From an uncultured Gammaproteobacteria bacterium (GTDB lineage Bacteria > Patescibacteriota > Patescibacteriia > Buchananbacterales > UBA6539): a stretch of DNA of 64,000 nt. The translations under genes and the position numbers were made by a program. Positions 35,301-58,588 of the stretch are shown one piece after another. A model generated the notes under the pieces. The model ran no database searches, was not told the DNA's origin, and worked only from the letters and a program-made list of their open reading frames with translations. The stretch covers positions 43,892 through 107,891 of the forward strand of contig CAZINP010000003.1 in assembly GCA_964540635.1 (NCBI GenBank). The letters are read 5' to 3'. Position 1 is the first letter of the stretch; every line of letters starts with the position of its first letter.

Positions 35301-38300
35301 GCAAAAATTAATTTATTTAACAGGAGTTGACGAAAAGACCGTTGACTGTACAAATGTTAATGGTCAGTGTTTGGTTACGCCGGGTGATAATCAGGTTCCG
35401 GCCGGAAAAAATGGTGATTCGCAAGTTATGGTTTCGGGCAAACAATATATGGATAATAACAATCAGATTTGTACCCCAACAGAAGCCAATGCTCAAACTT
35501 GCCTATTGCGTCGGTCAGCTCACCAAACCATTGATATCACCAATTTTATTTGTGATAATCCTTGGCCGGCTCTTGGATCTTTCCCGTATACAGACAGTAA
35601 TGCCAGCGGCAACTCGCCGACAAACAGCGTTACGCCATATTATAATTTCACCATGTATTATTGCCGCGATTACGGCAAAGAAGGTTTTGATGACGATTTG
35701 CCGTCGTTAAATATCAATGGGCCGGTTTTTGGCAGCCGCGGTGATGTCCTAAAAGAATTTTTATTCCCGGTTGGAACCGATGTGGTTATTAATGCCCCCG
35801 GTTCACCAAAGAGGGGTGTTGATTTCTTGAGCAATGACTGCACTCAGGCCGGTATGGGTGGTATCGTGCCAAGCAATACCGATGCTTATCGGTGCAATGT
35901 TAATTCCCATTTCCGTTATAAATTTACGGGCGTGGAGAAGGGTTACTATAAATTAGTCTACCAAACTTATAATTACGGTTCGGGCAGCATGAATTCTCTG
36001 GATTTATATGGTTTGAAGATGTGTGATAAAAATAAAAATGGTTATATAAATACCGGCGGGGCAACCGGGGAAACAACTCCTTGCAACACTCAGGCTGATT
36101 GTGCCAGCTTGGGAACGGGCATTGCCTGCTTGCCGGTAACTCAAGAAATTGATGTATATCACGTTAATGTTAACGATACAGTTCCGATTGCAAGAATATC
36201 AGCTATACCGCGCGCATACGACAATATGCAGTCAAATGAAGTGCCGGTGTTATTAGAGGCGGGTGATCACACTTTTAGATTTAGATGGATTAATGATTGG
36301 AATGTAACAGTAGATGGTAAATATTATGATTCTAATTTGATTATCAATAAGGTTTCATTGATTAAAGTTGAAAATGAAGCAACTTCAGATGCAATCGGCT
36401 TAAGAATTTTACCAAATACGCTGCATCTTTCCGCCTCAACTTGGTATAATACCGGCCTTTGCGGCGCCCAAGTTGGCAGTGGTGTAGAGAATATTTGTTA
36501 TAGCAACAATGATTGCGCCGGCATTAATTTGTTTAAGAACGCAAACTTTGAAGATACAACAAAGCCTTGGGTTTATGAATATAACACGCTTTCGCCAAAT
36601 GTTTACCATAATCAGCCCGGTGAAATTATTGCCGGTGGCAGAAGTGGCAAAGCCGATAAACTTGCTGGTCAAAGCACGGTAACAACCTGGGGTTATCAAA
36701 TAAAATATCCTTCCCCGTTTGATTTGCCGGCAGGAAACTACGTCTATTCGGCTTGGATAAAATCACAAGACGGTGGAAAGGTTGGGATCACGGTTCAAGA
36801 AACAACCGGCTGGAGCCATTTATGCAGCAATAAAGATTGCACGATTAGGGGTGATTCAGTCGTCTGTGCCAATACTGATAACGAGTGGCATAAAGTTACT
36901 TGTACTTTTAGTTTGGCAAAAAAGACACAGGTTCAAATGGCCGTTAGAGCCGACGATGAGGCTAAAACCTTTTTGGTTGATGACGTCTCTCTCACGACGG
37001 GTTGCAATTTTAATTTGCCAAGCCGCGGCACAGCCCAACCTTTGACTTTTGACGGATACAACGCCGCTTCAGACGGCAGAAGCTTATACGTTAATGCCAC
37101 TAATTTTAACGGCACCAATTTGTTTTCAAACATTTTCTTATTATCGTATACTCAAAACGCCAGCGAAAGTACGAAGGAAATCTTCAGGCGTTTATCTGAT
37201 CAAACCAATACTTTGGGCGGCTTGAGCTTTAATGCCAATATGACCAGCCATCGCCTTTGCAGTGGCGTTGGTTTGTACGAGAAGACAAGCTTTATTTGTA
37301 ATCAAGTCGGCGTTGCCACCGATTGCCGTGGATATAACAGTCAATCGCTTTGCGAAAGCGAAGCAAACTTAAAGAATGGCTGTTACTGGAGTGAAACCGA
37401 TAAAATTTGCAGCGGCCGCATGTGTTTGCCGATTTATTGTCAAAGTGATAAAGACTGCCCGAATTTAATTTGCGATAATCAAAAGGGCGGAGCAGTCAGG
37501 GATAATTTGCGTTTCGGCAATTTGCGCGATATGCAGCTGACTTTGGAAAGAAGTTATAAATCAAACGGCAGCTATCCTAAGTTATCAGCCGGTACCTATA
37601 TAGCGTCCACTACTTTTGCGGTTTGGCCGTCTTGGCAGGCAACCTTGGGCAGTGGAATCGGCAGCACCTTGCCTTCTGATCCGTTAAATTATTTTACCGG
37701 TTGTGTGGCCAGTTATTGCGACACCAATGAAAACGGTACACTTGAAACCGCTGAAACCACTTCTTGCTTGCCCTATAATGTTACTTCCTGCAATAACAAG
37801 CCTCAAAATTGTTTGCCGACCGAAGTTGATCCGGATAGAGTAAAAACCTGCTGGGACGAAAAGGCTAAAGAATTTTCTTGCCCGCAAGAAATGTACACTT
37901 ATGCTTATCGTTCAAGTGAAGGCGGCAAGGAGTATGAACTTTATACCAATTTTGAATTTATAACTTCCGGCTGGGTGAGTAACGCCACCGGCTATCAATT
38001 GCCTTTTTATGGCACGCAAGAATGCAAGAAATTAAATTTTGAAATACATCAAACCAGAGATAGGGTTTCAACCCCAATTGAAGATTCCAGCTGTGCCATT
38101 AAGCATTGCTGGGGAGCCTCAGGTATTTTAACCGGCTTAAGGGACGGTTGGACCTATGGTCAGAACAACACAAATGATTGCGAAGGTACCAGGCCGGCGT
38201 GTCCAAGCGGTTATCGCTGTACCGGTGATGCTGATTCGGACGGAGTTTGTGATGAAGGCTTGAGTGATAATTGCGCACCTCTTTTGATGTGTTCGGCTAA

Positions 38301-41300
38301 CGCCAAGGATTGCTATAACCCAGATCAGCGCGACAGCAACGGTGATGGTCGCGGCGATGTTTGCGATCAGACATGTTCGGGCGATAAGGATGGCGATACG
38401 ATTTGTGATAACATTGATAATTGTCCGACAGTCAGAAACACCGATCAACTCGATCACGATGGCGACACAATTGGTGATGCCTGCGATCCGTGTACGGATA
38501 TGGATAGTGATGGTTATTGGGATTATAAGACAGCTGCCAATGACGAAAAAGTTTGCCCTCAAGACAATTGTTCCCCGTTCTATAACGGTTATTGCCAGAG
38601 CAGCGCCGGAGATCGAAACGGTCAACGTTGTCATTCAACCTCGGATTGCGTTGCCGGGTTTAATAATACATGTTTTATCCCATTTACCTCTTCCTTTGGT
38701 GTCTCTAATGATCGTCCAAAATATTGCATTAAAACGGTTGACGGTAAAGAGCTTTTTGCTTCAAAGGAAGTTTGTAGTACTGCTTGTCCCACCGGCTATA
38801 CTTGCAAGCAAGCCTTGGACAGTTCAACCAGGTATTTTAATCCGAACCAAGAAGATTATGATAACAGCGGTCGCGGCTATATTTGCAATGATTGTTTGGA
38901 TTATGATCAGGATGGTTTAGGTGATTGGACCTTTTATGCCAAATCAAGCGATGTCGCAACGGCCGTAAATTTAACCTTTGATCAGAAAGAACATTTTGCC
39001 GGTTGCCGAGCCGATCAAAGAGCATTTGTTGGTTTTGGGACACCGTCACCGGCGACAGATTTAGATAATTGTCCGGGTGGGCCTTATTCAAAGAAGTGCT
39101 ATGATAATTTCGGCGTGGAAACCCTCTGCTCAAATCCGCCGACAAATTGGAGTGATGAAAATAATAATAGTTATGTTAACAGCCAAGCCGATATTGATTT
39201 GAATCATTATGGTGATATCTGTGATCCTTCGGGCGACGGCCGCCTTGACCCGGGCGAGGCCTGTGATTGCGGTGATTTAGCCATTTCTCAAGATGAACAA
39301 AATCCGTTCCAATGTACAACTTTAAATGATGTAGAATGTGCGCATTCAGAAAGATATGGTGATTGCTGCAAGTATTGCGCCACTGATTTGGCCACCGGGC
39401 AGCACTACATTGCTCAATCTTGCGGTCCAAGGCTGGGAGACGGCATTGTTAATGGTAGTGAAGAGTGCGATTGCGGCGAGAACCAAATAATTCGCGACAG
39501 CATTACCGATCCGCCTAATATTGACGCTACCGCCACTTCCGGTATTTCGTGTTTGACTTTTGATACGGCCAGAACCCCCAGAACCATTTTTAATGGAATT
39601 GATTGTGGACCGATAACTCAAAACGGGGTGTTTCAGTGGAGCATGGACGGCTATTCCTGTCAGTGGTGCGATATGGGTAGAATCGAAGAAACTACCGGCC
39701 CATATTTTGGTGATGGGATAGTTGACACGGACGTTTCCGGGGGCTTGGAACAGTGCGATTGCGGTGATGCGGCGCCGATTTCTACAGATACCAACAACTC
39801 TTTCTGTGTCTATGGCACATACAATTATTATGGTGAAACCAGGACCGGCAATTATTGGACTTTAACCGAAACTGCTGTTTTATTTAATGAAACAGAGACG
39901 ATTACCAGAAATATTCCTTGTATCTCAAAATGTTCGTCGTTTAACGGCCAACCCTGCACACCACAGGAAAGATGCGATGGTGTTTGCGGGTATTGCCGGG
40001 CTAATGATACTAACACCGGTAGCATAGAAGACTATTCCGGTCATCTGTGCCTGCCGTGTTCATCAGTAGAATGCAATTCAATTTGCATTAACTTACCAAA
40101 TGACGGTTGTTGCCGTGATGGAGAAACAGCTGATAATGAATATGGCTGTCCGTTTAAGGTGGGTGATCAAATTTTAATAAAAACACGAGAAAATAATACT
40201 GCTTGCGGATCAAACGAAGATAAGCCGTGGTGTCACCCTTCAATTTTCTTGAAAGCTAAGACGCGTTTGGCAACCGATCCGGGGATTTTTGGCGACGGTA
40301 CCTCGGCTTCACCATTTTATTTCTTTAAGGTTTTACCTGGAGATGAAGATGACTGTCGAGTGAACAATAATCGAATTCCTGAATTGGGCAGTGACGTAAA
40401 AACCGGGGATTGTATTAAATTTGAAATTACTTCGATTAATGGTAAAAACAAGGTTTCGATTGGTTCGGACGGCTGGATAACGGTTGGGGATAATTTCGCC
40501 AGCTGGGTTATTAACATTGTTGACGGTATGCCGCTGAAGGTTGGTAGTATAATCTCATTGAAACAGGCTGGTCAGAGTGATGATAAATTTTGGTCAACCA
40601 GGTGGAAAAATGTTGTTACGCTTTTTGGCGAGGATACTCCTGTGGGCACGGCAGATAAGGATCAGGACTGGGAAAAATTTAAAATTTGCAATCGTGCAAA
40701 TATTTGTTCAAACCAGGAGCTTATTCAAGAAACGTGTACGCCGCCCGCCACCGGTGAAGTGGATTCGTGTGCAAATAAATATACCGGCTGCCACCGTTGC
40801 GTAGCAATATCTGAAAACTTAAATATTTGTAGTGAGTACAATTATACTTGGAATCCGGACTTAGTTATAACACCAATTTTGCTGTGCTCTGGTGCTAATC
40901 GTGACTATTGTTGTAATGAGTCTTTGTGTAACGGCAATCCTAATGATTCAGCTAAATATGATATTGATTGTGACGGCGTAAAAATAAATGAGCCAATCAG
41001 TTTGAATGCCGTAGTAGAAAGTAATGGTGTTGATGGTTTTGAATTTTTAACCGGTGGAACAAACTCTTCTGATTATGTTCACACGAAAGGAACTGGTGAA
41101 AACCTTACAAATTATAGGTTTGTGGCAGCTATTTCTCGTGCCTGCAGATCCGATCGGGATACTGTCATAAGAATGCCCGGGGCAGGTAATGCCGTTACTG
41201 GTGGTGGGGACGATAATATTCGTGACGGGGACTGCATTTCGCTTGAAGCTAATGCCGGCGCCTTGGTTATGAACGATGAAAGCTTTTGGAATAATAAAAA

Positions 41301-43260
41301 ATGGTTACGAAGCGAAAAAGACGGTATGAATGGAGATGTAATTACCAGAGAATTTAGTGTGTATAATTATACAGCCAGAGAAAACGGCATAGATGATGCA
41401 AACATTTCTTATGGAGATATTATTGGTTTTTATGAAATTCGCAGCCCTTATGGATATGGCGCCTGGTGGCAAAATTTTTATCCGGACGAGGGGGGTAAAA
41501 TTGGTAATAATCCGACGGAAGGCTGGTGGAGCACTCCAATGAATGACTGGTCAAGAAAATTTAAAGTTTGTAAAGCTGATGGCGTCTGCGCACCTATATG
41601 TGATGTTGTTAACAGTAAAGTTTCCGGTTGCCCTGAGCCTCAAGGCTGCTATATTTGTCAAGATCCAGGCGCTTGGTCTTCTATTTGTTTGCCAAACCCG
41701 ACTTATACTTACGGTTCTTACACTTGTGGCGTGAGAGAGGACAATTCTTTATGCGCCGGCGTAATTGGTGAGGATAATTGTTGCGTCTCCGGGGAGTCAT
41801 GGTTGCAAGATCGCGCCTGTCCTTTAACTGACGGTTCACAGATCTCAATGAAGGATGATCATTCTTATTCTGCTGGTTTGCGAGTATTTTTAGCTGCGGG
41901 CAATAATAATGGGGCTGATTCCATCTCTGGCTGTGGTGGTCCTGGTGAGGAGTGGGATTGGCGCGCCATTAGATTAAGCGTAACAGATGATGCAAAGTTT
42001 ACAGTTGAGAAGTGTGATAAATATAAGGCAGGCTGCACAGCTGTTAATCCAAAGGGTCCAATTCGTTATGGTGAAATAGTAAGAATCAAGAGTAATAGAA
42101 ATTATTGCCCGGCAGTTGAGGCAGAGACAGGAGTATTTTCTGGGGAAGAGGTTGATGTGGAGTTTGGTGATGGCGTTGCCGCATACTTTAAGCTTTGCAG
42201 TGCGGTGGTTGGCGGAAATTGTGCGCAGAGAGATGATGATATTAATAGTTTAAATTCTTATCCTTATATAAGAAAAGGCGATAAGGTTTACCTGGAAAGG
42301 GCGTCTTGGAATCAAGCAAACAATTGGTGGGCTGGAAATGGAAAATATATAGATTTAAATGAACACAGTGAAGATATAAATGATACTCAGGGCGACAAGG
42401 ATAATAAAAATCCAGTATTATTAAGTTCTGGAAGCGGCGAAGGTTTATTTGTTTGCGACTCAACATTAAATCAATCAAACTGTTATTGCAGGGAATATCC
42501 CGGTACGATAGTTTGTGGGGCAGAATGCAAAGCACCACAGACAAAACCGGCCGATGATTATTGTAATACTTATGTTCCTAATTCTGCCAGACCCGAATGT
42601 GACGGTTGGCATGCTGTCAGTACCGGTAAGCCGGAGTGTGGTCCCTGCAGTGAGTCAAACTGCCAATTGTATTGCGCTAATGCTGACAACGACGGTTGTT
42701 GTAAGGGTAGTGAAACTATCAGCAATGAGTATGCTTGCCCGATCTTATCGGGTAGTGATGTAATTTTATATTCGGTTGGTGGCGGTACTTATATTGATAG
42801 GTATAACGATTGGTATACCTTAGATGCTGATTCCGCTGTGGTTACTAGAATTATGGAAACTACCGGCGGTCGAGACCAAAACTTTACGGTTCATAATTTG
42901 GCAATTTTTGATGGCGCATTTTTTGAGATGGTCGGAGACAATGAGGATAGCCGTATTTGTAATAGAAAATCACTCCATTGGTGGTTGGCGTGGACATCAT
43001 GTGATAATAGTCAGTTTAAACTTCATTTGGTATCTGATTCAAGGCCTGGTATCGCCGGGATTCAACCGGGGTCTATTATTGGCTTGGAAACCGGGACTGA
43101 TACTCCAACTAATCGCAAGTGTTATAGGGTTAGGACAAGCGCCAACTCTAGCAGTTGGGCCGGGTATTTTGATGGCGTTGATTGTCCAACATGGAACGCA
43201 AGCACCGATAATACTTTCTTATTTATCATTCAGGCCAGTAATGGCAATCAAGCTCCTTAA
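26347..43260 (+). CDS. giant secreted cysteine-rich multidomain surface protein 2 (5637 aa, 16.9 kb) with the same pilin-type N-terminal module
   Basis: Uninterrupted 16.9-kb ORF in AT-rich DNA. Domains read from the translation: pilin-like N-terminus; 3 IPT/TIG-like domains; about 13 CGNGxxExGEECD Cys-rich repeats; LamG/ConA-like and CBM-like beta-sandwich domains; Ig-like modules ending YSWVFKT; thrombospondin type 3 repeats (DNCPTVRNTDQLDHDGDTIGDACD); a triplicated C-terminal module. Confidence 0.85.
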   Translation: MKPKTKIITKKITVLALFAIAIFAIAPVALAADFGLGYGTNLGLGTQDLRVTIMRVVQVALGFLGIIAIILFMYGGWLYLSSAGNEEKISRGKQVLINAVIGLVIIFTSFAIVSFIINFLGSATGSQPPQGFTCTANQCVSCGVRCNDTGDGYVSTSDCSTQEYCSVPPNPACPKPDDIIPTICRIEPVRGVGFGGVPQGYVGDFVTIEGWYLGIFESGVSRVKFDETEASIATCDNNPIWYTNANRYSIIRAIVPSIELGTTNVLIETSASLTSNTKPFIVIEGNPGPGLACLIPPNGKNNDLLTKAEGVRFGDDPDILGGLFFNDNQKSTFVSWSDEIISQPTVPANAVSGQVYVKDADGIQSNGVWFTVSCTENSSCASGCCKSFMCQPDSACQSGVGESCDNDINTTNCEPGSNCADGLVCNSNSCLCDLPGYDQPCDTNLDLPLCQGGSCAAGYYCQESTCTCQEIPTYGEPIIYGFTPTSGAVGTYVTISGGNFGPNKTSAAGHVYFIEGANKVEADYTLIKECADTFWHNTQIVVKVPAGLVNGNQYIIEVENSEGKFDTSGLNPSVFTVDENLIRPNICKITPDNGPIYQDVEIYGENLNPSAAPVSSVIFSSNVVQSNFTLSTNDIFASVPAGSVSGLVKAKNSKDNESNGLYFQVGACVVGGCQSGYECCQGGRYNLSCMPEGGCYAAVSNSSYDWTFTTGARPGNCSNDSGICIPNNDMCSAGYTCDTQTCNCTPTGTFNCSNKAYPVCEPNSDLCPDNQFCGATCTCLAKIPCDGNVATPACQPSDDICRSVDSSLSCDPETCYCDTGFSATKAAYDWTFNSYTEGPQVVDECNRTPECAKVCANDRSITCSQDSDCGADGPCIKAFSSPSPKYNRDGEVYANSQISVSFDQEILPSTVNSNTIKLYRCNQDSGFLSASCSVITVSSYLVFDWDYGIIDANGVIINPVNSLEAGYWYKAEVTAGVIGRNGFAAAPYSWLFKIKAGTGSVGCATCQPGYATLFARYDGNCSGVGDPDCQPYLGQAWDQDHVCVMLKPETLTWNWNLLNETDKRASIFNRATSQPAYPNDEDAYLSSVSGQGFDVIDVYARKETLTNPVKVATEINGLPSQAYQYGENICDLSVDLSTPIVVKRWPDCNGACTNASVGAAFSIPMNSSSITASGAVVLYACADNANCRPGYGVCSVTGNYCNAAKGTGCGTGETCQALDYDQVSVPLNFNQLGAVVNGYANSYLADSPCFDINADGKTDYCLLPNTYYRVILRNTIEATNGKKLGKLNYDDALYNGLSELGIKDSYSWVFRTQDNMCAPGRISVQPEERHMSIYEVQKYASYPYTSPDSCDAQGQPLIAASFVWEWQSKYCQIADLFSSSYGGYLNTHTFFAVPPGCTKVTSQYATLRSGCGNGVVGLGEDCDDGNIFNQDGCSSTCLNEGVSTMPNYNFSFDGIPTISSNTNEFPFESTSFSLLRNYPLNGTARSGFGSSQNLGVNNSGVIYAQSDNGRSGLMRDNWVSADHYFVSANIKLPQNTENINDVGLIFGYLSNNSNYFAAIWSSLGYSAMADYQQLKIIKAASGLPQSVANTQKIPADQNWHEIKVEVINYDFSADIKLYFDDNLYLTYKSNTRVVGNAGIYAYDTDGQVLFDNLKIYGDDLPICGNGILEKGEECEKDQAGNFGPYCTLGCLNSGNAASGAVCGNGVVEPGEECDNGNEPNNNEADGCTNTCILSGFTLSNMCGNGIVDKGEACDNGDFTRYTCLNNPSQVCDPNDDTACGNQKALCTNRAKSGDGCTGYYQSVAFPENISGHSCSTMTETQCKTFSETSSDNHAKYCYWTGTECRIRPCISETSTAQGNDRYDISICGNGLVEAGEECDYGSLCQTSYGGVARCTSLNASTVCASGICGQGVCQAKTSTGYITNQYVACTEENAGDLCYSGSCELPANSYLPGCTSNCLNAGSVSDNRSHQIAQGLADGQTEVQAWTSEFKPSSGGPMGIGKLFVGAWGQPEDFYVIDQWPNCFTACLNADIGAQFSQYVNTASLTTSDNIKLYECRTDSGCNLANATKISGLSVIPFTIKTNSDNRIDAVQLLLPNSYNPVNHDNNPSTAPIPALLPDSYYRVVISKNVRTDSNPPKNLQYLNFNDPTVGSGTENDSYSWVFKTQNKNNFCALSSVKVLPQTWQMFTGNKRQLYFSRPISKPDECSVNGQLLNPFYFDWRWDDVEMSQDNGNFINGADILIDTLDEFLKKVINGGTLPTTPPTAGGYLKDGCGNGVVEFGEDCDPGLQSIEGCSNTCQHAGSGACSPTVSTNCCGNSIIEPGEECEPFVNGGFCTSNGLLCDPFLDPNSCPGGTCLYLCDSRCRFAGNTNTQANCGDGVISPIEICDGKLGDDSDGCSDYCQPSGAVPATGSTCGNGIIEKGEECDGGELASGNIPLSFDGNNCSGIKNKTGVSGGCTNYSTETQCQSWKGCYWSGNECKHRPCIIENRNVAVCRNSENLSVDFKQNYNACKPGYTSIFLNTLTGTSLTNRPVCGNGVVEPGEECDLGGWCIDEETNNFKTCTTYNAVGCRNNICLTYSYYCSVDGLPIDGATTLGACSAEGICDSNKNCVVAGPGGSEIEYPKSTCTTIGAACSISGTGYVNGCSSNCVYNGSRYDDGINDPYQIVQSVGVFSNTVLTEVNEEIRAWHALQPDRVGVGELTILASANVPFTVVGHQPKARGLDPTNQCRNVGIWAILSRPLDATSVTAENLYLGKQGVEDNLIKSYSVLPVSGSCNENHRCVYPGAEDSPLETSYCYVNSDCVGSKIVINEIEGVYLDGNSSYVLRFKQSLKAQDGSNLQELNYSDQDLKNYTIWGFDTSADFCSCNYVGVNILNTTGQAFTTKDYFTCAGDNCGSNTYKVLFDDDYKPKAMCRLSGQEAKFACDTSKSAVDQCGTGGTCSLYSAMAGNQHLYNANCYDTEYSEGTDIPVGLGTAYDFAEIDPQKLIYLTGVDEKTVDCTNVNGQCLVTPGDNQVPAGKNGDSQVMVSGKQYMDNNNQICTPTEANAQTCLLRRSAHQTIDITNFICDNPWPALGSFPYTDSNASGNSPTNSVTPYYNFTMYYCRDYGKEGFDDDLPSLNINGPVFGSRGDVLKEFLFPVGTDVVINAPGSPKRGVDFLSNDCTQAGMGGIVPSNTDAYRCNVNSHFRYKFTGVEKGYYKLVYQTYNYGSGSMNSLDLYGLKMCDKNKNGYINTGGATGETTPCNTQADCASLGTGIACLPVTQEIDVYHVNVNDTVPIARISAIPRAYDNMQSNEVPVLLEAGDHTFRFRWINDWNVTVDGKYYDSNLIINKVSLIKVENEATSDAIGLRILPNTLHLSASTWYNTGLCGAQVGSGVENICYSNNDCAGINLFKNANFEDTTKPWVYEYNTLSPNVYHNQPGEIIAGGRSGKADKLAGQSTVTTWGYQIKYPSPFDLPAGNYVYSAWIKSQDGGKVGITVQETTGWSHLCSNKDCTIRGDSVVCANTDNEWHKVTCTFSLAKKTQVQMAVRADDEAKTFLVDDVSLTTGCNFNLPSRGTAQPLTFDGYNAASDGRSLYVNATNFNGTNLFSNIFLLSYTQNASESTKEIFRRLSDQTNTLGGLSFNANMTSHRLCSGVGLYEKTSFICNQVGVATDCRGYNSQSLCESEANLKNGCYWSETDKICSGRMCLPIYCQSDKDCPNLICDNQKGGAVRDNLRFGNLRDMQLTLERSYKSNGSYPKLSAGTYIASTTFAVWPSWQATLGSGIGSTLPSDPLNYFTGCVASYCDTNENGTLETAETTSCLPYNVTSCNNKPQNCLPTEVDPDRVKTCWDEKAKEFSCPQEMYTYAYRSSEGGKEYELYTNFEFITSGWVSNATGYQLPFYGTQECKKLNFEIHQTRDRVSTPIEDSSCAIKHCWGASGILTGLRDGWTYGQNNTNDCEGTRPACPSGYRCTGDADSDGVCDEGLSDNCAPLLMCSANAKDCYNPDQRDSNGDGRGDVCDQTCSGDKDGDTICDNIDNCPTVRNTDQLDHDGDTIGDACDPCTDMDSDGYWDYKTAANDEKVCPQDNCSPFYNGYCQSSAGDRNGQRCHSTSDCVAGFNNTCFIPFTSSFGVSNDRPKYCIKTVDGKELFASKEVCSTACPTGYTCKQALDSSTRYFNPNQEDYDNSGRGYICNDCLDYDQDGLGDWTFYAKSSDVATAVNLTFDQKEHFAGCRADQRAFVGFGTPSPATDLDNCPGGPYSKKCYDNFGVETLCSNPPTNWSDENNNSYVNSQADIDLNHYGDICDPSGDGRLDPGEACDCGDLAISQDEQNPFQCTTLNDVECAHSERYGDCCKYCATDLATGQHYIAQSCGPRLGDGIVNGSEECDCGENQIIRDSITDPPNIDATATSGISCLTFDTARTPRTIFNGIDCGPITQNGVFQWSMDGYSCQWCDMGRIEETTGPYFGDGIVDTDVSGGLEQCDCGDAAPISTDTNNSFCVYGTYNYYGETRTGNYWTLTETAVLFNETETITRNIPCISKCSSFNGQPCTPQERCDGVCGYCRANDTNTGSIEDYSGHLCLPCSSVECNSICINLPNDGCCRDGETADNEYGCPFKVGDQILIKTRENNTACGSNEDKPWCHPSIFLKAKTRLATDPGIFGDGTSASPFYFFKVLPGDEDDCRVNNNRIPELGSDVKTGDCIKFEITSINGKNKVSIGSDGWITVGDNFASWVINIVDGMPLKVGSIISLKQAGQSDDKFWSTRWKNVVTLFGEDTPVGTADKDQDWEKFKICNRANICSNQELIQETCTPPATGEVDSCANKYTGCHRCVAISENLNICSEYNYTWNPDLVITPILLCSGANRDYCCNESLCNGNPNDSAKYDIDCDGVKINEPISLNAVVESNGVDGFEFLTGGTNSSDYVHTKGTGENLTNYRFVAAISRACRSDRDTVIRMPGAGNAVTGGGDDNIRDGDCISLEANAGALVMNDESFWNNKKWLRSEKDGMNGDVITREFSVYNYTARENGIDDANISYGDIIGFYEIRSPYGYGAWWQNFYPDEGGKIGNNPTEGWWSTPMNDWSRKFKVCKADGVCAPICDVVNSKVSGCPEPQGCYICQDPGAWSSICLPNPTYTYGSYTCGVREDNSLCAGVIGEDNCCVSGESWLQDRACPLTDGSQISMKDDHSYSAGLRVFLAAGNNNGADSISGCGGPGEEWDWRAIRLSVTDDAKFTVEKCDKYKAGCTAVNPKGPIRYGEIVRIKSNRNYCPAVEAETGVFSGEEVDVEFGDGVAAYFKLCSAVVGGNCAQRDDDINSLNSYPYIRKGDKVYLERASWNQANNWWAGNGKYIDLNEHSEDINDTQGDKDNKNPVLLSSGSGEGLFVCDSTLNQSNCYCREYPGTIVCGAECKAPQTKPADDYCNTYVPNSARPECDGWHAVSTGKPECGPCSESNCQLYCANADNDGCCKGSETISNEYACPILSGSDVILYSVGGGTYIDRYNDWYTLDADSAVVTRIMETTGGRDQNFTVHNLAIFDGAFFEMVGDNEDSRICNRKSLHWWLAWTSCDNSQFKLHLVSDSRPGIAGIQPGSIIGLETGTDTPTNRKCYRVRTSANSSSWAGYFDGVDCPTWNASTDNTFLFIIQASNGNQAP

Positions 43261-48399: not shown

Positions 48400-50748
48400 A
48401 TGATTTTGGGAATCGGAGAATCAAAACTAAAACTTTCAAAAAACGCTTTAACTGTCTTGGAGAGTCGTTATTTGCTTAAGGATGAAAAAGGCAAGGTAAT
48501 TGAAAAGCCAATGGAAATGTTTAAGCGCGTTTCCTCTTATATAATACAAGCTGAAGACAAATATAATTTATCCAAAGAACGCAAGGAAGAATTGGAAAAA
48601 GCGTTTTTGGAAATAATGACCAATTTGGAGTTTTTACCAAATAGCCCGACTTTTACCGGTGCCGGTACGGCCTTGGGCCAACTTTCTGCCTGTTTTGTTT
48701 TGCCGGTTGGCGACTCAATGGAAGAAATATTTTCAGCTATAAAAAATACCGCCTTAATCCACAAGTCCGGCGGGGGAACCGGCTTCTCATTCTCTCGGCT
48801 TCGTCCGTCAAATGATCCGGTTAGATCAACAAGCGGCGTGGCTTCCGGTCCGATTTCATTCATGGCAGTATTTGATGCGGCCACCGAAACCATCAAACAG
48901 GGCGGAACCAGGCGTGGTGCCAATATGGGCATTCTACGTGTTGATCATCCGGATATTTTACATTTCATTACCTGCAAGGAAGACAGTAACAAATTAAACA
49001 ATTTTAACATTTCCGTCGCCATCACCGATAAGTTCATGACCGCCATGGAGAGCAACGATGAATATGAATTAGTTAATCCTCATGATGGCAAAGTTGCAAT
49101 CAAGCTAAAGGCTCGCGAAGTTTGGGATAAAATTGTTGACCATGCTTGGCGCAACGGTGATCCGGGTATAATTTTTATTGATCGGATTAACAAATACAAC
49201 CCAACTCCGCATGTGGGTGAAATCGAAAGCACCAACCCTTGCGGGGAACAGCCTCTCTTGCCCTATGAATCTTGTAATTTGGGTTCAATTAATTTGGCCA
49301 AATTAATTAAAGATGGTCAGGTTGACTGGGACAGACTCGGCGATGTTGTAAAAATTGCTGTACGATTTTTGGACGATGTGATTGACATGAATTCTTATCC
49401 AATTCCAGAGATTGATAAAACAACAAAATCAAACCGAAAAATCGGTTTAGGAGTAATGGGTTGGGCAGATATGTTAATGATGCTTGGCATTCCCTATAAC
49501 TCCAACGAGGCGATTGATTTGGCTGAAAAGGTTATGAGATATATTAAAGAAATTGCCGATAAAACCTCAACAATTTTAGCCAAAGAAAAAGGCGTTTTCC
49601 CTAATTTTGAAGGCAGTATTTATGACACTCCAGAATCAGCCGGCATGAGAAATGCCACCAGAACCACTATTGCTCCAACCGGCACTTTAAGTATTATTGC
49701 CGCTTGCTCTTCCGGTATTGAGCCGCTTTTTGCCTTAGCTTATGTGCGCAAATCTCATATTGGCAAAAAGGGCGGCGACGAATGGGTTGAATTGGTTGAA
49801 GTCAATCCGTATTTTGAGGAAGTAGCCAGAGAGCGTGGTTTTTACAGCAAAGAATTAATGGATAAAATTGCCAAAGAAGGTTCAATTAAAGACATTCCCG
49901 AAGTGCCGGAAGATATCAAAAAGATTTTTGTTACTTCTCATGATATTACGCCCGAGTGGCATATCAGAATGCAGGCGGCGTTTCAGAAGTATGTTGATAA
50001 TGCGGTTTCTAAAACGGTTAATTTTCCGCACTCGGCCACCAGAGAGGATATTGCCAAATCCTATTTGCTTTCGTATGAAACCGGTTGCAAGGGCGTAACA
50101 ATTTATCGCGATGGCAGCCGCGATGTTCAGGTTTTAACAACCGGCAAATCTCATGGCCAAGAAAAATCGGGGCAAAATTTACCCGCCGTTTCCTTAACCA
50201 AACGCGAGAGACCCGTGGCCATGAAGGGCACAACCTATAAAATCAATACTTCATATGGTGATTTATATGTAACTATTAATGACGATGATTCCGGTCGTCC
50301 GTTTGAGGTCTTTGCCACGATCGGTAAGGCCGGCGGTTTTTTCTCGGCCAAATCAGAAGGTATTTGCCGCCTGGTTTCTTTGGCTTTAAGGTCAGGCATT
50401 CCGGCCGAAGATGTCATTAGACAAATTAAAGGTATTCGTGGGCCAATGCCGTCTTGGACCGAATGGGGGATGGTTTTATCTTTGCCGGATGCTGTTGCTC
50501 AGATAATGGAGCACCATATTACAAAAAATCAGCCGAAACTTGATTTGGAATTTCATAATAAATCCGAAGAAGAAAAGCAATCAGCTGGCAATCAATCAGC
50601 CCCAAAGCCAAACGGCAATGGTTTGAATATCAAACGCTCAATTGCGGATATCGGCGCAGCGCCAGAATGCCCGGAGTGCGGTAATGTTCTAGAGATTGCC
50701 GAGGGTTGCTTAAAATGCCAATCTTGCGGCTATTCCAAGTGCGGCTAA
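48400..50748 (+). CDS. nrdJ: class II adenosylcobalamin-dependent ribonucleotide reductase
   Basis: NPCGEQPLLPYESCNLGSINL active-site region and a C-terminal zinc-ribbon CPECG...CLKCQSCG; 782 aa. Confidence 0.9.
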   Translation: MILGIGESKLKLSKNALTVLESRYLLKDEKGKVIEKPMEMFKRVSSYIIQAEDKYNLSKERKEELEKAFLEIMTNLEFLPNSPTFTGAGTALGQLSACFVLPVGDSMEEIFSAIKNTALIHKSGGGTGFSFSRLRPSNDPVRSTSGVASGPISFMAVFDAATETIKQGGTRRGANMGILRVDHPDILHFITCKEDSNKLNNFNISVAITDKFMTAMESNDEYELVNPHDGKVAIKLKAREVWDKIVDHAWRNGDPGIIFIDRINKYNPTPHVGEIESTNPCGEQPLLPYESCNLGSINLAKLIKDGQVDWDRLGDVVKIAVRFLDDVIDMNSYPIPEIDKTTKSNRKIGLGVMGWADMLMMLGIPYNSNEAIDLAEKVMRYIKEIADKTSTILAKEKGVFPNFEGSIYDTPESAGMRNATRTTIAPTGTLSIIAACSSGIEPLFALAYVRKSHIGKKGGDEWVELVEVNPYFEEVARERGFYSKELMDKIAKEGSIKDIPEVPEDIKKIFVTSHDITPEWHIRMQAAFQKYVDNAVSKTVNFPHSATREDIAKSYLLSYETGCKGVTIYRDGSRDVQVLTTGKSHGQEKSGQNLPAVSLTKRERPVAMKGTTYKINTSYGDLYVTINDDDSGRPFEVFATIGKAGGFFSAKSEGICRLVSLALRSGIPAEDVIRQIKGIRGPMPSWTEWGMVLSLPDAVAQIMEHHITKNQPKLDLEFHNKSEEEKQSAGNQSAPKPNGNGLNIKRSIADIGAAPECPECGNVLEIAEGCLKCQSCGYSKCG

Positions 50749-53519: not shown

Positions 53520-54041
53520 ATGAAAAAAGATTTGGGTAAAATACATGTTTATACCGGCAACGGTAAGGGCAAGACCACGGCGGCCTTAGGTTTGGCTTTG
53601 CGCGCCATTGGCGCCGGGTATAAGGTTTATATTATTCAGTTTTTGAAAGCCCAAGATTATAGTGAGTTAAAAAGTCTAAAGCCGCTTAAACAAATTACTC
53701 TCAAGCGCTTTGGTTTAAAATCTTTTATCGTCAAAGAAGCAAAATCTGCCGACAAGGTTTTAGCCAAAGAAGCCTTGAGTTGGTCAAAAAAAATATTACA
53801 AAGCAAAAAATTTGATCTGGTTATTTTAGATGAAATATTTTTAGCGACATTTTTTAAGCTTATTGATGTTAAGGATTTGATTAAGCTGATAAAACAAAAA
53901 CCAAAAGGCATTGAGCTTATTTTAACCGGCCGGCAAGCGCCAAAAGAAGCGATTGCTTTGGCCGATTACGTTACGGAAATGAAAGAAATTAAGCATCCAT
54001 ATCAAAATGGTCAGCTGGCCAGGAAGGGAATAGAGGATTAA
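53520..54041 (+). CDS. cobO: cob(I)alamin/corrinoid adenosyltransferase (CobO/BtuR family)
   Basis: P-loop GNGKGKTTAALGLALRAIGAGYKVYIIQFLK typical of the CobA/CobO/BtuR family; 173 aa. Confidence 0.75.
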   Translation: MKKDLGKIHVYTGNGKGKTTAALGLALRAIGAGYKVYIIQFLKAQDYSELKSLKPLKQITLKRFGLKSFIVKEAKSADKVLAKEALSWSKKILQSKKFDLVILDEIFLATFFKLIDVKDLIKLIKQKPKGIELILTGRQAPKEAIALADYVTEMKEIKHPYQNGQLARKGIED

Positions 54042-54093
54042 TTTTTTTGTGGATAAGTTATTTTTATAAAAAATTCTAGTTGTTTTGCCACAT

Positions 54094-54122
54094 TTGACAA
54101 CCCAAAATAAATAAACTAAAAT
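54094..54122 (+). promoter_or_regulatory. promoter TTGACA-N17-TAAAAT
   Basis: Consensus -35, 17-nt spacer, AT-rich -10. Confidence 0.45.
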
Positions 54123-54149
54123 TAAAAACACATTAAAAACTTGTTTGAA

Positions 54150-54334
54150 TTTTCCGAAGCGAGGTGAGAGTCCTCCACTGGTCCGCAACTGTGAAGTTTT
54201 AGCCAAAAGCTAAAAATAAGTCAGGTCGCGAAAATTCAGACGCTAACACTTAACTCTTCGAGATCAAGAGTTGGTGGCCTGGCCGTTTGTCGCGGCTTGT
54301 TGCCCCGACTCCCTCGAAAAAGGGAGATTTTTTT
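54150..54334 (+). promoter_or_regulatory. candidate cobalamin riboswitch with SD-sequestering intrinsic terminator
   Basis: cGAAGCGAGGTGAGAGTCC resembles the AGGGAAgccGGTGAAAATCC core. cCACTGGTCCGCAACTGTGAAG resembles GGTCCCGCCACTGTaa. A B12-box-like AGTCAGG follows. The platform hairpin ctccct-cgaaaa-agggag + T7 abuts the ATG, and the SD (agggag) is its 3' arm. Confidence 0.45.
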
Positions 54335-56113
54335 ATGAAAAAAAGCAAAGTTTTGCTTTTGGGCCTAGCCCTAATGCTTTTGCCCATTAATCCGGCAGTG
54401 GTTTTGGCTGATTTACCGTCAGGCGTTTCCTATCTGCAATCGGCCACACAAGACGCTTGGACAACTCAAGCTTTGGCGGCGGCCAATCAAACGAATTTAA
54501 GTTTGGCGCATTTGCAGTCGGTTTCCGGAAGTTTGGCCACTGATTACGCTAAAGCGATTTTAGCTTTGGCTTCAGCCGGAGAAGATCCAAAAACTTTTGG
54601 TAATATTGATTATGTTGCCAAATTAAAAACCTATTACAATAATAATCAATTTGGTGATGCCGGTTTAATTAACGACGATATTTGGTCGCTATTGGCTTTG
54701 GCGGCCGTAAGGGATACAGCCGGTCAAGATTTTATTGATGCAAAGAATTATATTCTCAATCATCAAAACAGTGATGGCGGCTGGTCTTATGCCGCTTCTG
54801 GATCAAGCGACAGCAATGATACGGCCGCGGCCATTATCGCTTTGGTTGAAGCCGGTTATGATTCTTCAAGCCAAGAGGTTGCGGCGGGAATCGATTATTT
54901 AAGAACTACTCAAAATTCCGACGGTGGTTTTGGTTATGATACATCTTCTGACTCTGATTCTGGATCTGACTCTTGGGTAATTGCGGCCTTGAACAAATTA
55001 AATATTCAAGCCAACACTTGGGAAAAAGACGGCAATGATCCGATTGAGCATTTAAATTCGTTGCAAGATACTGATGGCGGCTTCTGGTGGGTAAAGCCAG
55101 GTACTTCTGATTTTAATAATAAAGCGATGACTGCTTATGCTGTAATTGCTTTGTCCGGGAAGTCATTTCCGGTTGGTTATTATCAATTGGCAGTCAGCAA
55201 TGATTTTTATTTGAGAGTGGAGGGGAGTGCAGGTCAAATTTGTGAAACAGAAGTTGCCGGTCAAACGGCGTTGGATTTAATTAAGAATGCCGCTGAAGAA
55301 TGTAATTATACCTATACAATTACTCAGGAAAGCTTTGGGCCTTATTTGCGCGCAATTAATTCCGAAGAAGCGCAAGGACTGGATGGTTGGCTTTATTTTG
55401 TCAACGATTCTTCGCCGGCCGTGGGCGCGGCTGATTATGTCTTGGCTGCCGGTGATAAGGTTTTGTTTTATTATGGTCAGTGGGGCTGGAATCCAACCAA
55501 ATTGATTTTATCTGCTCAAGATATTGAAGTCGGCCAGAGTGTTCAGGTTCAGGCCAAATATTTTAATGGTACAAACTGGCTTCCTTTACCCGAGGCGACA
55601 ATTTACGTTAACAACACTTCGCGCCAGGCTGATTCAGCGGGTGGGTTGACTTTAACCTTTGAGCAAAATGGCATTAATCAAATTTGGCTTGATACGCCGG
55701 AATTTGTGCGCAGCGCTAAATATAAAATCCAAGTGGGCGCCGGTGTTTCCCAAGCCGTTGGTTTGCAGGCTGAAATTGATCAAGCCGGATCGATTTTGGG
55801 TGATTCAATCGGGCTGGAAGTTGTCCCGGGAAATCTTGATTTTGGACGCCTAAAACCCGGCCAGAGCTTATCTCAGACTTTGGTTCTCAGAAACGTTGGG
55901 CAAAGCCAAATTGAAGTTGGTGCCAATGTTACCGGCGATGATTTATTTGTAAATCAGATAAAAATTAACAGTATTTCCCCCAATCAATTTTTGGAAACAA
56001 TTGACTATGCTGATCAAAAAGAAGTGGTAATCGGTTTTGCGGTTCCGGCCAGTTACGGCGGCAGCGGCGTTAAAACCGGTCAGATAATTTTTTGGGCGAC
56101 AAGCGCGAATTAA
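54335..56113 (+). CDS. secreted transcobalamin/BtuG-like protein: prenyltransferase-type alpha/alpha-toroid repeats + C-terminal DUF4430-like beta domain
   Basis: Signal peptide MKKSKVLLLGLALMLLPINPAVVLA; repeats QNSDGGWSYA...TAAAIIALVEAGY, QNSDGGFGYD, QDTDGGFWWV; C-terminus GLDGWLYFVNDSSPAVGAADYVLAAGDKVLFYYGQWGW. Confidence 0.55.
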   Translation: MKKSKVLLLGLALMLLPINPAVVLADLPSGVSYLQSATQDAWTTQALAAANQTNLSLAHLQSVSGSLATDYAKAILALASAGEDPKTFGNIDYVAKLKTYYNNNQFGDAGLINDDIWSLLALAAVRDTAGQDFIDAKNYILNHQNSDGGWSYAASGSSDSNDTAAAIIALVEAGYDSSSQEVAAGIDYLRTTQNSDGGFGYDTSSDSDSGSDSWVIAALNKLNIQANTWEKDGNDPIEHLNSLQDTDGGFWWVKPGTSDFNNKAMTAYAVIALSGKSFPVGYYQLAVSNDFYLRVEGSAGQICETEVAGQTALDLIKNAAEECNYTYTITQESFGPYLRAINSEEAQGLDGWLYFVNDSSPAVGAADYVLAAGDKVLFYYGQWGWNPTKLILSAQDIEVGQSVQVQAKYFNGTNWLPLPEATIYVNNTSRQADSAGGLTLTFEQNGINQIWLDTPEFVRSAKYKIQVGAGVSQAVGLQAEIDQAGSILGDSIGLEVVPGNLDFGRLKPGQSLSQTLVLRNVGQSQIEVGANVTGDDLFVNQIKINSISPNQFLETIDYADQKEVVIGFAVPASYGGSGVKTGQIIFWATSAN

Positions 56114-56114
56114 T

Positions 56115-56618
56115 ATGAGAATTATTGGCCAAAAAATATTATTTATCTTGGTTGTTGCCTTATTTTTTTGGCCGTTGCCGTCATCGGGTTTGGGTCTTTT
56201 GGTTAAGCCTCAGAAGTTGGAAGTGATTTCGTCTCCCGCGAATTTTAATGCCACCGAAATTATGGTTTTGAATAATTCCGATCAGCCGGCCATATATTTG
56301 GTTTCTTCGGATGGTTGGCAAAATCAAATTTCAATTGAGCCCAATGAGTTCAAGCTTGAGCCGAACGAATCAAAAGCAGTTAAAATTTACAGTCGCTTTT
56401 TGTGGCCCGGTTCATACAAAACCAACATTGCCGTTATTGCCAAGTCATTGTCGGCAGGGGATGCTTTGGCGGTTCCGGGAGTTAAGATACCTTATAAAAT
56501 TAATATCTCAAATTGGTTTTATGTATTGTTTTTAGGGTTAATTATATTTTTTTGCTTTGTTCTGTTTTTTGCGGTAAAATGGTTATTGTCAATAAAAAGA
56601 AACAAGAATGAATTATAG
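56115..56618 (+). CDS. hypothetical surface protein with N-terminal signal and C-terminal TM anchor
   Basis: Hydrophobic N- and C-termini, beta-rich middle; 11-nt overlap with the next gene. Confidence 0.4.
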   Translation: MRIIGQKILFILVVALFFWPLPSSGLGLLVKPQKLEVISSPANFNATEIMVLNNSDQPAIYLVSSDGWQNQISIEPNEFKLEPNESKAVKIYSRFLWPGSYKTNIAVIAKSLSAGDALAVPGVKIPYKINISNWFYVLFLGLIIFFCFVLFFAVKWLLSIKRNKNEL

Positions 56619-57063
56619 GATTATAAAAAATTTAACCAGGATTTTGGTCGTTTTATTGGTTTTTTTTGCCGGGTTTTGGTTTGGCCGCTTGCAGGTTCAA
56701 GCGCCTGTTCAAAATCTTGATAACACTCAGATTCCGGCTGAAATTTATGTTGACTTAACTATTGATTACGGCTCGGGAAATATTCAGGAATTTAAAGATC
56801 TGTCATTAAGCCCAAAATCAAGCGTTTATGATTTACTCAAGGTTGCAGAGAAATCAAATGGTTTAGGGCTGCAGGTTAAAGATTACGGCTCGGACATGGG
56901 TGTTTTGATTGAGGGTTTGGGAGGGGTTAGTAATAATCCCAGAACCGGCACTTATTGGCAGCTGTGGGTTAACGGTTCATACGCCCAAGTTGGTGCCAGT
57001 GCGTATGAGCTAAATTCAGGTGATAAGGTTGAGTGGAAATATACTAATTCTCAAATTAAATAA
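56608..57063 (+). CDS. DUF4430-like domain protein (membrane-anchored)
   Basis: N-terminal TM; VYDLLKVAEK...GTYWQLWVNGSYAQVGASAYELNSGDKVEWKY parallels the C-terminal domain of the 54335 protein. Confidence 0.55.
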   Translation: MNYRIIKNLTRILVVLLVFFAGFWFGRLQVQAPVQNLDNTQIPAEIYVDLTIDYGSGNIQEFKDLSLSPKSSVYDLLKVAEKSNGLGLQVKDYGSDMGVLIEGLGGVSNNPRTGTYWQLWVNGSYAQVGASAYELNSGDKVEWKYTNSQIK

Positions 57064-57076
57064 TTAAGGATATATT

Positions 57077-57610
57077 ATGAATTTAAAGACAAAAATTTTA
57101 TTTGCCGCCTTCTTGGTTGGCTTGGGTTTATTGGCAAGGTTGGCGCCACATTTTTGGAATTTTGCGCCGATTACTGCCATTGCCCTTTTTTCCGGCGCTT
57201 ATCTTGGCAGACGCTGGGGCGCAATGGTGCCGTTAGCCGCAATGTTTGTTGGTGATTTATTTATTGGTTTTTATGAATGGCCGTTAATGATTACGGTTTA
57301 TGCTTGTTTTGCGCTGTTTGGTTTGGCCGGTTCAATCATTTCCAAGAATAAGAATTTCAAATCGGTTTTAGCTCTTAGTCTCACGGCCTCTATTTCCTTT
57401 TTTATCTTAACGAATTGGGCGGTTTGGCAATTCTCTCCTTGGTATGCCAAAACTTTTTCCGGCTTAATCGGATGTTATACCAATGCTTTGCCTTTCTATC
57501 GCAATACTTTGTTGGGAGATGTTTTTTACACCCTGGCTTTGTTTGGCTCATACGAGTTAGTTAGAAATTATTCCCAGAAATGGCAGCTAAAAGCGATTTT
57601 TTCGCGTTAA
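57077..57610 (+). CDS. small polytopic membrane protein (possible vitamin-transporter substrate-capture/S-component-like)
   Basis: 177 aa with about 5-6 TM helices, rich in W/F/Y; the functional assignment is an inference from context only. Confidence 0.35.
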   Translation: MNLKTKILFAAFLVGLGLLARLAPHFWNFAPITAIALFSGAYLGRRWGAMVPLAAMFVGDLFIGFYEWPLMITVYACFALFGLAGSIISKNKNFKSVLALSLTASISFFILTNWAVWQFSPWYAKTFSGLIGCYTNALPFYRNTLLGDVFYTLALFGSYELVRNYSQKWQLKAIFSR

Positions 57611-57706
57611 AATCAAACAGAAATTTATTTGACCGGCAAGCCTTGCCGGTCTTTTTTTATTTAGATTTATATTGTATAATATAGGGAAGAAAATAAGCAC
57701 AAAACT

Positions 57707-58165
57707 ATGACAGAAAATCAAATTAATCAAAACCTGGCGGATGAGTCAAAGTCTTTTCATGATCAAATTGATGAGGTCAGAGGCATTGCCGAGGAAAATC
57801 TGCATTATATAAAAGCGATTTATCAAGCCAAAACGGACGGCTTGGGTAAGGATGAGGCTGATTTAAGGCAACTGGTTCAGGAAAACTTAAATTTGTCCCA
57901 TGAAATTTATCGTTTGGTTAAAAAAATCAGGAAACAGCTTTTGTGGCAAAAGATTTTTGGCTTTTTGAAATTTTTAATTATCGTTGTTCCTTTGGTGGTG
58001 GGTTCAATTTATTTATATCCCATGCTTCAGGAAATGATTGGAACTTACCAACAAATAACGGAAATGACCAAGGGTAATACGGTTGATGTCTCAAAATTGA
58101 ATTTGGATACCAGTAAGCTTAGCCCGGAAGTTATTCAAAATTTATTAAAACAGATTAAAAATTAA
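57707..58165 (+). CDS. hypothetical coiled-coil protein with one TM helix
   Basis: 152-aa ORF; TM FLKFLIIVVPLVVGSIYLY. Confidence 0.4.
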   Translation: MTENQINQNLADESKSFHDQIDEVRGIAEENLHYIKAIYQAKTDGLGKDEADLRQLVQENLNLSHEIYRLVKKIRKQLLWQKIFGFLKFLIIVVPLVVGSIYLYPMLQEMIGTYQQITEMTKGNTVDVSKLNLDTSKLSPEVIQNLLKQIKN

Positions 58166-58168
58166 CAT

Positions 58169-58588
58169 TTGGCTATGCTCAAAGAGTTTTATAAGTCATT
58201 GCCCAAGAGAACAATTATCTTGCTTTTGATTTTTATCACTTTATTGGCAATTGCCAATACTTATATTTATTTTTACCGTCAGAATATTAAAGGTGTTGTT
58301 AATAAGTATCTTTCCGAAATTACTGTTTGTGAGAATATTAAAGATGAGCAAACTTGTTTTGAAAAGGATTTTTGTGAGGGTATTTATGATAACGACGGCT
58401 CAGTTTTAAGTTTTAAATCTTGTCGTCGCATTAGCAATGAATCAATAGAAAACCAAAGAGCGCAACAACAATTATGCGAAAGAACTCAGGGAACATGGTA
58501 TGTTAATAAGCTTGGCTCGTTTTGTCTTTGCCAGTCAGCCGGTCCGGGAAAAATATTTGATTCAAATAATGGTTGTCTTGATCAATAA
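58169..58588 (+). CDS. secreted cysteine-rich hypothetical protein
   Basis: N-terminal TM/signal; 10 Cys in 139 aa. Confidence 0.4.
   Translation: MAMLKEFYKSLPKRTIILLLIFITLLAIANTYIYFYRQNIKGVVNKYLSEITVCENIKDEQTCFEKDFCEGIYDNDGSVLSFKSCRRISNESIENQRAQQQLCERTQGTWYVNKLGSFCLCQSAGPGKIFDSNNGCLDQ

Follow-up and report, generated by a model that had tools for sequence, protein, structure and literature searches.

The question that this locus raises is whether the leader in front of the gene that starts at ATG 54335 responds to a corrinoid and, if so, whether it acts on transcription, on translation, or on both. In the window (the whole 64,000-nucleotide stretch of DNA that was analysed), we favor the reading, with a probability of about 80%, that a riboswitch of the Rfam family RF01482 leads a four-gene operon for B12 scavenging in a bacterium of the Parcubacteria/Patescibacteria and is most likely a transcriptional OFF switch. 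We infer the identity of the ligand (AdoCbl), the termination itself and the direction of the regulation. The coordinates of the features are collected in Table 1.

Table 1. Elements of the leader, the downstream operon and the neighboring genes (positions in the window; nt, nucleotides)
Feature	Position	Strand	Basis
Sigma-70-type promoter: TTGACA 54094–54099, 17 nt, TAAAAT 54117–54122	54094–54122	+	Consensus scan
AdoCbl (cobalamin) riboswitch aptamer, including P13	54129–54280	+	Rfam RF01482
P1	54142–54153 with 54231–54242	+	RF01482 alignment
P4 hairpin	54159–54176	+	RF01482 alignment
P4 loop, GGTGAGAGTCC	54163–54173	+	Sequence reading
L5 and 5′ side of P6, CACTGGTCCGCAACTGTGAAG	54177–54197	+	Sequence reading
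L5	54179–54187	+	RF01482 alignment
L5 kissing nucleotides G-U-C (partner 54262–54264)	54181–54183	+	Covariation in homologues
P6 with B12 box	54189–54225	+	RF01482 alignment
B12-box core, AGTCAGG	54219–54225	+	Sequence reading
P13 hairpin (inner stem 54252–54258 with 54266–54272)	54247–54276	+	Rfam alignment
L13 loop CGAGAUC (kissing nucleotides 54262–54264)	54259–54265	+	Rfam alignment
Variable spacer hairpin GGCCGU/GCGGCU, capping the antiterminator	54281–54297	+	Fold prediction
Predicted antiterminator, 3′ strand	54302–54318	+	MFE of nascent RNA
Antiterminator helix A	54302–54311 with P13 3′ strand 54268–54278	+	Predicted fold
Antiterminator helix B	54313–54318 (CUCGAA) with L13 and flank 54257–54262 (UUCGAG)	+	Predicted fold
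Terminator hairpin CUCCCU-CGAAAA-AGGGAG (6 bp, −8.0 kcal/mol)	54309–54326	+	Sequence, folding, conservation
U7 tract, one A after the hairpin, ending at the start codon	54328–54334	+	Sequence reading
Secreted 592-aa protein: transcobalamin-like alpha-toroid, DUF4430 beta domain, then Ig-like domains	54335–56113	+	Pfam, AF2, PDB fold match
167-aa membrane-anchored protein	56115–56618	+	Gene context
151-aa DUF4430 protein	56608–57063	+	Pfam
177-aa DUF6580 membrane protein	57077–57610	+	Pfam
Operon-ending intrinsic terminator (9 bp, −14.1 kcal/mol, U7)	57631–57651	+	Folding
Class II (B12-dependent type) ribonucleotide reductase, upstream of the leader	48400–50748		
P-type ATPase gene, upstream of the leader			
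Cob(I)alamin adenosyltransferase cobO/btuR, upstream of the leader	53520–54041		

The family assignment comes from a cmscan search of the whole window against Rfam 15, in which RF01482 (named "AdoCbl") is the sole riboswitch match. The hit covers positions 1–149 of the 149 of the model, with a score of 54.5 bits (gathering score 50) and an E-value of 3.1e-7, or 2.9e-9 when the search is restricted to a local segment of 601 nt, where cmscan returns no other credible match. The margin over the gathering score is only 4.5 bits, which counts against the assignment. The conserved core is in place: the P4 loop (GGUGA..UCC, 54163–54173), GCAACUGUGA at 54185–54195 and the B12 box AAGUCAGG at 54217–54225 align at the consensus positions with posterior probabilities of "*", and the loop of the 3′ hairpin, P13, carries the CUUCGAG motif of the family. 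The aptamer lies in the 5′ leader of a B12-related gene, 7 nt downstream of a promoter. RF01482 belongs to clan CL00101, together with RF00174 (Cobalamin) and RF01689 (AdoCbl-II), and the window shares with it P1, P4, L5, P6 with the B12 box, and P13 with its L13 motif; it differs from the family in that it lies near the threshold, in that the host is a Patescibacterium and in that the related leaders have large insertions in P4 or P6. Judged by its sequence, the RNA is a cobalamin-clan riboswitch of the ordinary AdoCbl type, and the name of the Rfam model and the gene context suggest that it would be selective for AdoCbl.

A preliminary description of this DNA, made without database searches, had compared three segments of the leader (GGTGAGAGTCC, CACTGGTCCGCAACTGTGAAG and AGTCAGG) to the conserved cores of cobalamin riboswitches. 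All three are found at the places it gave when 53800–54700 is read. The cmscan search that it proposed gives a significant match, and the covariation analysis that it also proposed reveals a conserved structure in homologous leaders (kissing loop, P13 and hairpin, see below), so that the reading as a cobalamin riboswitch holds. The promoter that it had noted, TTGACA-N17-TAAAAT, is likewise correct, with 11 of the 12 consensus positions matched in a consensus scan; homologous leaders have TTGACA and TAAAAT or TACAAT at an equal distance from the aptamer. Transcription is predicted to start near 54129–54130, about 7 nt past TAAAAT. At 54126–54141, and at the same position in the homologues, there is a conserved segment AC(C/U)UUAA(C/A)AA, located after the presumed start and before P1, whose counterpart in the Rfam model is positions 1–13, which are unpaired; the segment could be an initially transcribed sequence or make a tertiary contact.

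The comparison with other organisms is based on loci that were gathered by protein homology, ignoring the RNA, from three close relatives, from species-representative genomes and from metagenome contigs. The three close relatives (L081–L083) have an identical synteny and the same gene order in the operon. The scan with a full-length protein alignment retrieved Streptomyces SCO2321-type proteins through the generic prenyltransferase-repeat pattern and about 10 useful loci from Patescibacteria; the metagenome contigs were queried with an alignment restricted to the C-terminal part of the protein. The best protein relatives come from organisms named Buchananbacteria, Falkowbacteria and Parcubacteria. 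Start codons were fixed by aligning the N-termini of the proteins, which gave 23 non-redundant leaders, the window and 22 others from Patescibacteria. All 23 have the same layout: promoter, aptamer, P13 with the L13 motif YUUCGAG, a spacer hairpin of unrelated sequence, a short hairpin (typically CUCCC(U)/(A)GGGAG), 0–1 nt, a U-run, and the ATG.

The kissing interaction between L5 and L13 covaries. The pair C54183–G54262 is invariant in the 23 leaders, and the pair U54182–A54263 appears as U-A in 11 of them, as C-G in 6 to 8 and as G-C in 4. With automated extraction, the kissing loop is paired in 21 of the 23 leaders, which none of 10000 permutations matches; the two unpaired cases (L091 and L093) result from mis-anchoring on a second CGAG, and by eye they are C-G. 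The anchor used for L13 was the last YYCGAG before the hairpin, copies of CGAG being present in P6 insertions and in the 3′ strand of P13. P13 itself is paired in 89% of the cells of the alignment of 22 leaders, and 4 of its 7 pairs show changes on both sides. When P13 and the terminator hairpin are considered together in a MAFFT alignment of 22 platforms, 87.8% of the cells are paired, versus at most 62% with slid partners, 6 of the 13 pairs have changed on both sides, and the covariation score is reached by none of 500 shuffles.

The hairpin that follows was written in the preliminary description as ctccct-cgaaaa-agggag-T7-ATG. It is present at 54309–54337, with one A between the arm and the T7; 4 of the 6 bp of the stem are G-C pairs. 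In this AT-rich window, terminator-like patterns are not enriched (2 sites versus 2.2 expected); the significance of the pattern comes from its conservation in the homologous leaders. The hairpin is kept in 23 of 23, with 86% of the cells paired and compensatory variants: in UCUCUCUU/AAGAGAGA, GUCCCGC/GCGGGAU and UCCUC/GGGGA the pairing is kept but the sequence is not. A run of at least 4 U begins 0–1 nt past the stem in all 23 leaders (at least 5 U in 22 of them), the ATG lies 7–12 nt past the stem, and the bases between the U-run and the ATG vary. In distant orthologues (L002, L105, L108, L114, L116 and L125), the hairpin and the U-run are found 30–250 nt before the ATG. Intergenic terminators at gene ends of the window have stems of 4–10 bp, energies of −4 to −17 kcal/mol and U5–U8 tails; the leader hairpin falls in the lower part of this range, and it is short and weak for a terminator, which counts against the explanation that we prefer. 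On sequence grounds, the hairpin and its U-run are consistent with an intrinsic terminator of the OFF type. We also note that U7-AUG-A7 (54328–54344) is self-complementary, so that a small hairpin could form between the U-tract and the lysine codons AAAAAAA, with AUG as its 3-nt loop; this arrangement recurs in close homologues, and it may simply be that an MKK signal peptide adjoins the U-tract of the terminator.

The preliminary description had spotted this hairpin platform but missed the parts that would make it a switch, namely P13 with L13, the kissing loop and the antiterminator. The latter appears when the nascent RNA is folded from P13 through the loop of the hairpin, as it would be while the 3′ arm is still to be synthesized: in 23 of 23 leaders, the structure of minimum free energy (MFE) is predicted to be the antiterminator. 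It is 5–12 kcal/mol better than the fold in which P13 is enforced (mean 8.0 over the 23 leaders with corrected anchors; 8.8 in the window), whereas the mean advantage is 1.9 kcal/mol when the downstream segment is shuffled. The specificity of the partners points in the same direction, with an advantage of 7.97 kcal/mol for cognate partners versus 4.63 ± 0.54 for permuted ones, and none of 20000 permutations reaches the cognate value. It is important to note that the antiterminator was tested in this alignment-free manner, by folding each sequence and permuting partners. In fixed columns of a MAFFT alignment, 77% of the antiterminator cells are paired and the covariation is no better than in shuffles. 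Column-wise covariation is uninformative here because helix B hardly varies and the alignment of helix A is poor; MAFFT also misregistered hairpin loops of differing length when the full leader (238 columns) was aligned. The support for the antiterminator is therefore prediction for each sequence and partner specificity, not classical covariation. The position of the spacer hairpin is predicted to be occupied in every homologue by a hairpin of other sequence.

When the platform of the window is folded in full, the combination of P13 and terminator has a predicted energy of −30.0 kcal/mol and the antiterminator −31.3 kcal/mol. The OFF and ON states are thus nearly isoenergetic, so that the kissing loop, which depends on the ligand, would decide between them; by these predicted energies, near equality is what a switch tipped by a ligand requires. 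L13 is complementary to the arm and loop of the terminator, so that G54262 belongs to the antiterminator as well as to the kissing loop. Another possibility that we considered is that the terminator loop mimics L13 through a common UCGA. Complementarity was judged more likely, because UCGA is palindromic and because the variants CUUGAA (L001) and CCUCAAG (L093) still pair with L13.

The mechanism that we propose is as follows. With a bound corrinoid, L5 would kiss L13 and lock the P13 hairpin; 54302–54318 would then remain free, CUCCCU (54309–54314) would pair with AGGGAG (54321–54326), and the resulting hairpin with its U7 would stop RNA polymerase just ahead of the ATG. Without ligand, P13 would open, its 3′ strand would pair as helix A, and UUCGAG (54257–54262) would pair with CUCGAA, which spans the end of the 5′ arm of the terminator and its loop. 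This antiterminator, capped by the spacer hairpin, would block the terminator, and the operon would be transcribed.

The main question about this proposal is whether the hairpin acts on the ribosome as well. The preliminary description had seen a combined switch, a terminator whose 3′ arm is the Shine–Dalgarno (SD) sequence: a hairpin and U-run terminator of OFF type is supported, whereas the sequestration of an SD is not supported as it was put, since SD-like motifs are rare and the arm varies. In this alternative, the hairpin would both terminate and sequester a functional SD (AGGGAG, 8 nt before the ATG), and the bound ligand would also repress the translation of transcripts that are pre-made or result from read-through. 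The GGGAG is indeed at the canonical SD distance, it is kept in most close homologues, and a good AAGGAG in front of a few genes of related contigs indicates that some relatives may keep a usable anti-SD; besides, a hairpin that ends 8 nt before an ATG falls inside the footprint of the 30S subunit. The surroundings argue against it. An SD-like GGAG, GAGG, AGGA or GGGA within 30 nt upstream of the start is found for 2–3 of the 39 other genes of the window, the only certain one at a plausible distance being the AGGA at −10 of the DUF6580 gene, and in the relatives (L081–L120) for 6 of 69 other ORFs, four of which look like genuine AAGGAG; in a survey of CPR ribosomes, only 48% of Parcubacteria were reported to have the anti-SD motif (PMC9297842). 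Judged from upstream sequences, the use of SD motifs seems to be a minority mode in the clade. Moreover, the 3′ arm changes together with the 5′ arm in the homologues (UGAGAGG is a further form) and drifts to the non-SD sequences AAGAGAGA, GCGGGAU and GGGGA; the distant leaders whose hairpin is 30–250 nt upstream have no SD between hairpin and ATG; and the predicted ON structure of minimum free energy also pairs GGAG in part, weakly, with CUCU. From the upstream motifs and the variation of the arm (the 3′ end of the 16S rRNA lies outside the window), a functional SD is not apparent, and it is improbable that the GGGAG arm serves as a ribosome-binding site: its sequence is most likely explained by the need for a G+C-rich stem and by the fact that the 5′ arm must pair with the purine-rich 3′ strand of P13. 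A dual terminator and SD hairpin is therefore rather unlikely, and we give the same low weight to any translational contribution, be it through a rare SD or through the position of the hairpin 8 nt before the ATG.

It is even less probable that the riboswitch is purely translational, with the hairpin blocking the start region and the U-run being an AU-rich spacer or an S1-binding enhancer, so that no regulated termination takes place. In favor of this reading, so weak a stem (6 bp, −8 kcal/mol) is found more typically in sequestering hairpins, this one immediately adjoins the ATG, and the upstream regions of the genome are AU-rich in any case. On the contrary, the U-run is kept 0–1 nt past the stem in every leader, when the bases from there to the ATG vary, and the other start regions of the window are A-rich and not U-runs. 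In the distant homologues, the hairpin and its U-run are too far from the ATG to mask the start site, and bona fide terminators at gene ends of the genome look alike. The last alternative, a degenerate, non-functional remnant of an aptamer giving a borderline Rfam match next to a constitutive attenuator, has in its favor the score just above the gathering score, but the whole leader (kissing loop, P13 and hairpin) is conserved across orthologues whose proteins have 35–66% identity, which makes such a decay very improbable. Regulated termination most likely remains the primary mechanism.

The genes downstream of the leader fit a response to B12. Four tightly packed genes form a unit from 54335 to 57610, and a strong intrinsic terminator 21 nt past the DUF6580 gene limits the riboswitch-controlled unit to these four. 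The first of them codes for the 592-aa protein, in which Pfam recognizes DUF4430 and Prenyltrans domains. Its AlphaFold (AF2) model has a mean pLDDT of 86, and the top PDB folds found with it are transcobalamin, intrinsic factor and haptocorrin, aligned over about 420–440 columns with E-values of 2e-11 to 8e-9; these transcobalamin-type folds come ahead of prenyltransferases and terpene cyclases. The sole PDB sequence match of the DUF6580 protein is a chain of 6FNP, with a marginal E-value of 0.11, an entry that we take to be the ECF-CbrT B12 transporter. NCBIfam gives no match for the three small proteins of the operon. The riboswitch would therefore control what looks like an operon for the capture and uptake of B12.

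The genes just upstream of the leader, outside the control of the riboswitch, are likely to include consumers of AdoCbl and an enzyme that makes it; the presence of cobO/btuR and of a class II ribonucleotide reductase nearby, together with the transcobalamin fold, makes the gene context fit B12. Two small ORFs at 57707–58588, beyond the terminator and hence outside the riboswitch-controlled unit, are conserved in synteny. Elsewhere in the window, 26347–43260 on the forward strand is one uninterrupted open reading frame of 5637 aa.

The position of the start codon deserves a comment. For an identical database protein (P0001, NCBI, 608 aa), the start given is TTG 54287, a position within the expression platform. 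The starts of the homologues, MKK aligned with ATG 54335, and the signal peptide MKKSKVLLLGLALMLL agree with the downstream position. The alignment of the sequences thus indicates that the gene is probably annotated 16 codons too long in the public record, and that the protein starts at ATG 54335 and has 592 aa.

[quoted passage not shown] As in that system, a kissing loop between L5 and L13 is predicted in the window to stabilize P13, with a transcriptional OFF outcome. The two differ in several respects: in the window, L13 (UUCGAG) is also complementary to the 5′ arm and loop of the terminator (CUCGAA); the terminator, as known here from sequence and prediction, directly adjoins the start codon and is much shorter than that of metE; and the regulated genes are devoted to uptake and scavenging, rather than being metE. 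It may be, although we consider it rather unlikely, that in a lineage nearly devoid of SD sequences the terminator has been compacted onto the start codon, so that a hairpin of 18 nt acts on two levels, by termination and by occlusion of the ribosome landing site or of a rare functional SD, and that L13 toggles directly between kissing L5 and pairing with the 5′ arm and loop of the terminator. If this were true, the toggle of L13 would be a more direct coupling than that described for the metE platform.

Cobalamin riboswitches that act on translation, such as those of E. coli btuB and the env8 class II RNA, have the ribosome-binding site within P13 or L13 and no terminator. The window resembles them in its predicted kissing-loop-dependent control and in the purine-rich element near the start codon, but its P13 is separate and followed by a hairpin and U7, and the genome hardly uses SD sequences. 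As for the cargo, bacterial transcobalamin-like SLBB/DUF4430 proteins were already described by Burroughs, Iyer and Aravind (2007, PMC1796856). The 592-aa protein resembles them in its modelled fold of alpha-toroid and beta domain and in its Pfam DUF4430 domain, and adds C-terminal Ig-like domains and a signal peptide; its binding of B12 is putative.

We found nothing relevant in the literature on cobalamin riboswitches in Patescibacteria (CPR) or on DUF6580. In the former case, the absence is a gap in coverage and does not define a new kind of element: the RNA is recognized by a standard Rfam model, the proposed mechanism agrees with a published platform that was dissected by experiment, and the cargo falls in a known class of bacterial B12-binding proteins. 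No new mechanism is involved. The value of these observations is mainly one of annotation. In Parcubacteria, whose genomes are tiny and which are presumed to be auxotrophic for B12, a corrinoid riboswitch of the classical type has been retained, which is predicted to throttle a scavenging operon centered on a secreted transcobalamin-like protein; the start of the first gene is set at ATG 54335 instead of the TTG of the database; and, as a word of caution, a purine-rich hairpin arm near a start codon should not be taken for an SD by default in lineages that rarely use one.

Last, a few observations concern the distribution of these leaders. In 14 further loci, the leader of the orthologue matches RF01482 above the gathering score, and the clearly homologous leaders of two of the close relatives (L081 and L082) are just under it, which places the clade near the edge of the RF01482 model. 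Other members of the clan also precede orthologues: RF01689 (AdoCbl-II) in L012, L034, L105 and L116, for example in Saccharimonadales, and RF00174 in L004, L006, L007, L014, L069, L098, L107, L108, L114, L117 and L125. That differing cobalamin-clan models are found before orthologues suggests that the link between this gene and a B12 riboswitch is older than any aptamer subtype or platform.

In several aptamers, P6 (L087, L086, L095, L111 and L112) or P4 (L090 and L093) is enlarged by G+C-rich insertions, whose length ranges from 60 to more than 200 nt; one is also seen at 2760–2890 of L081. Many of the P6 and P4 insertions are built of repeated hairpins of the CCCCGAG...CTCGGGG type, and they explain why some aptamers fall under the Rfam threshold. 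Such insertions may be extensions at the periphery of the RNA or small elements that entered it. One contig (L089) has two riboswitches of the RF01482 type 1.2 kb apart (110–264 and 1389–1627). Downstream of the first come a long terminator of conventional form and a gene with a good CAGGAG SD (334–1323 of L089); the second, with the compact platform of hairpin, U7 and ATG, leads the transcobalamin-like gene.
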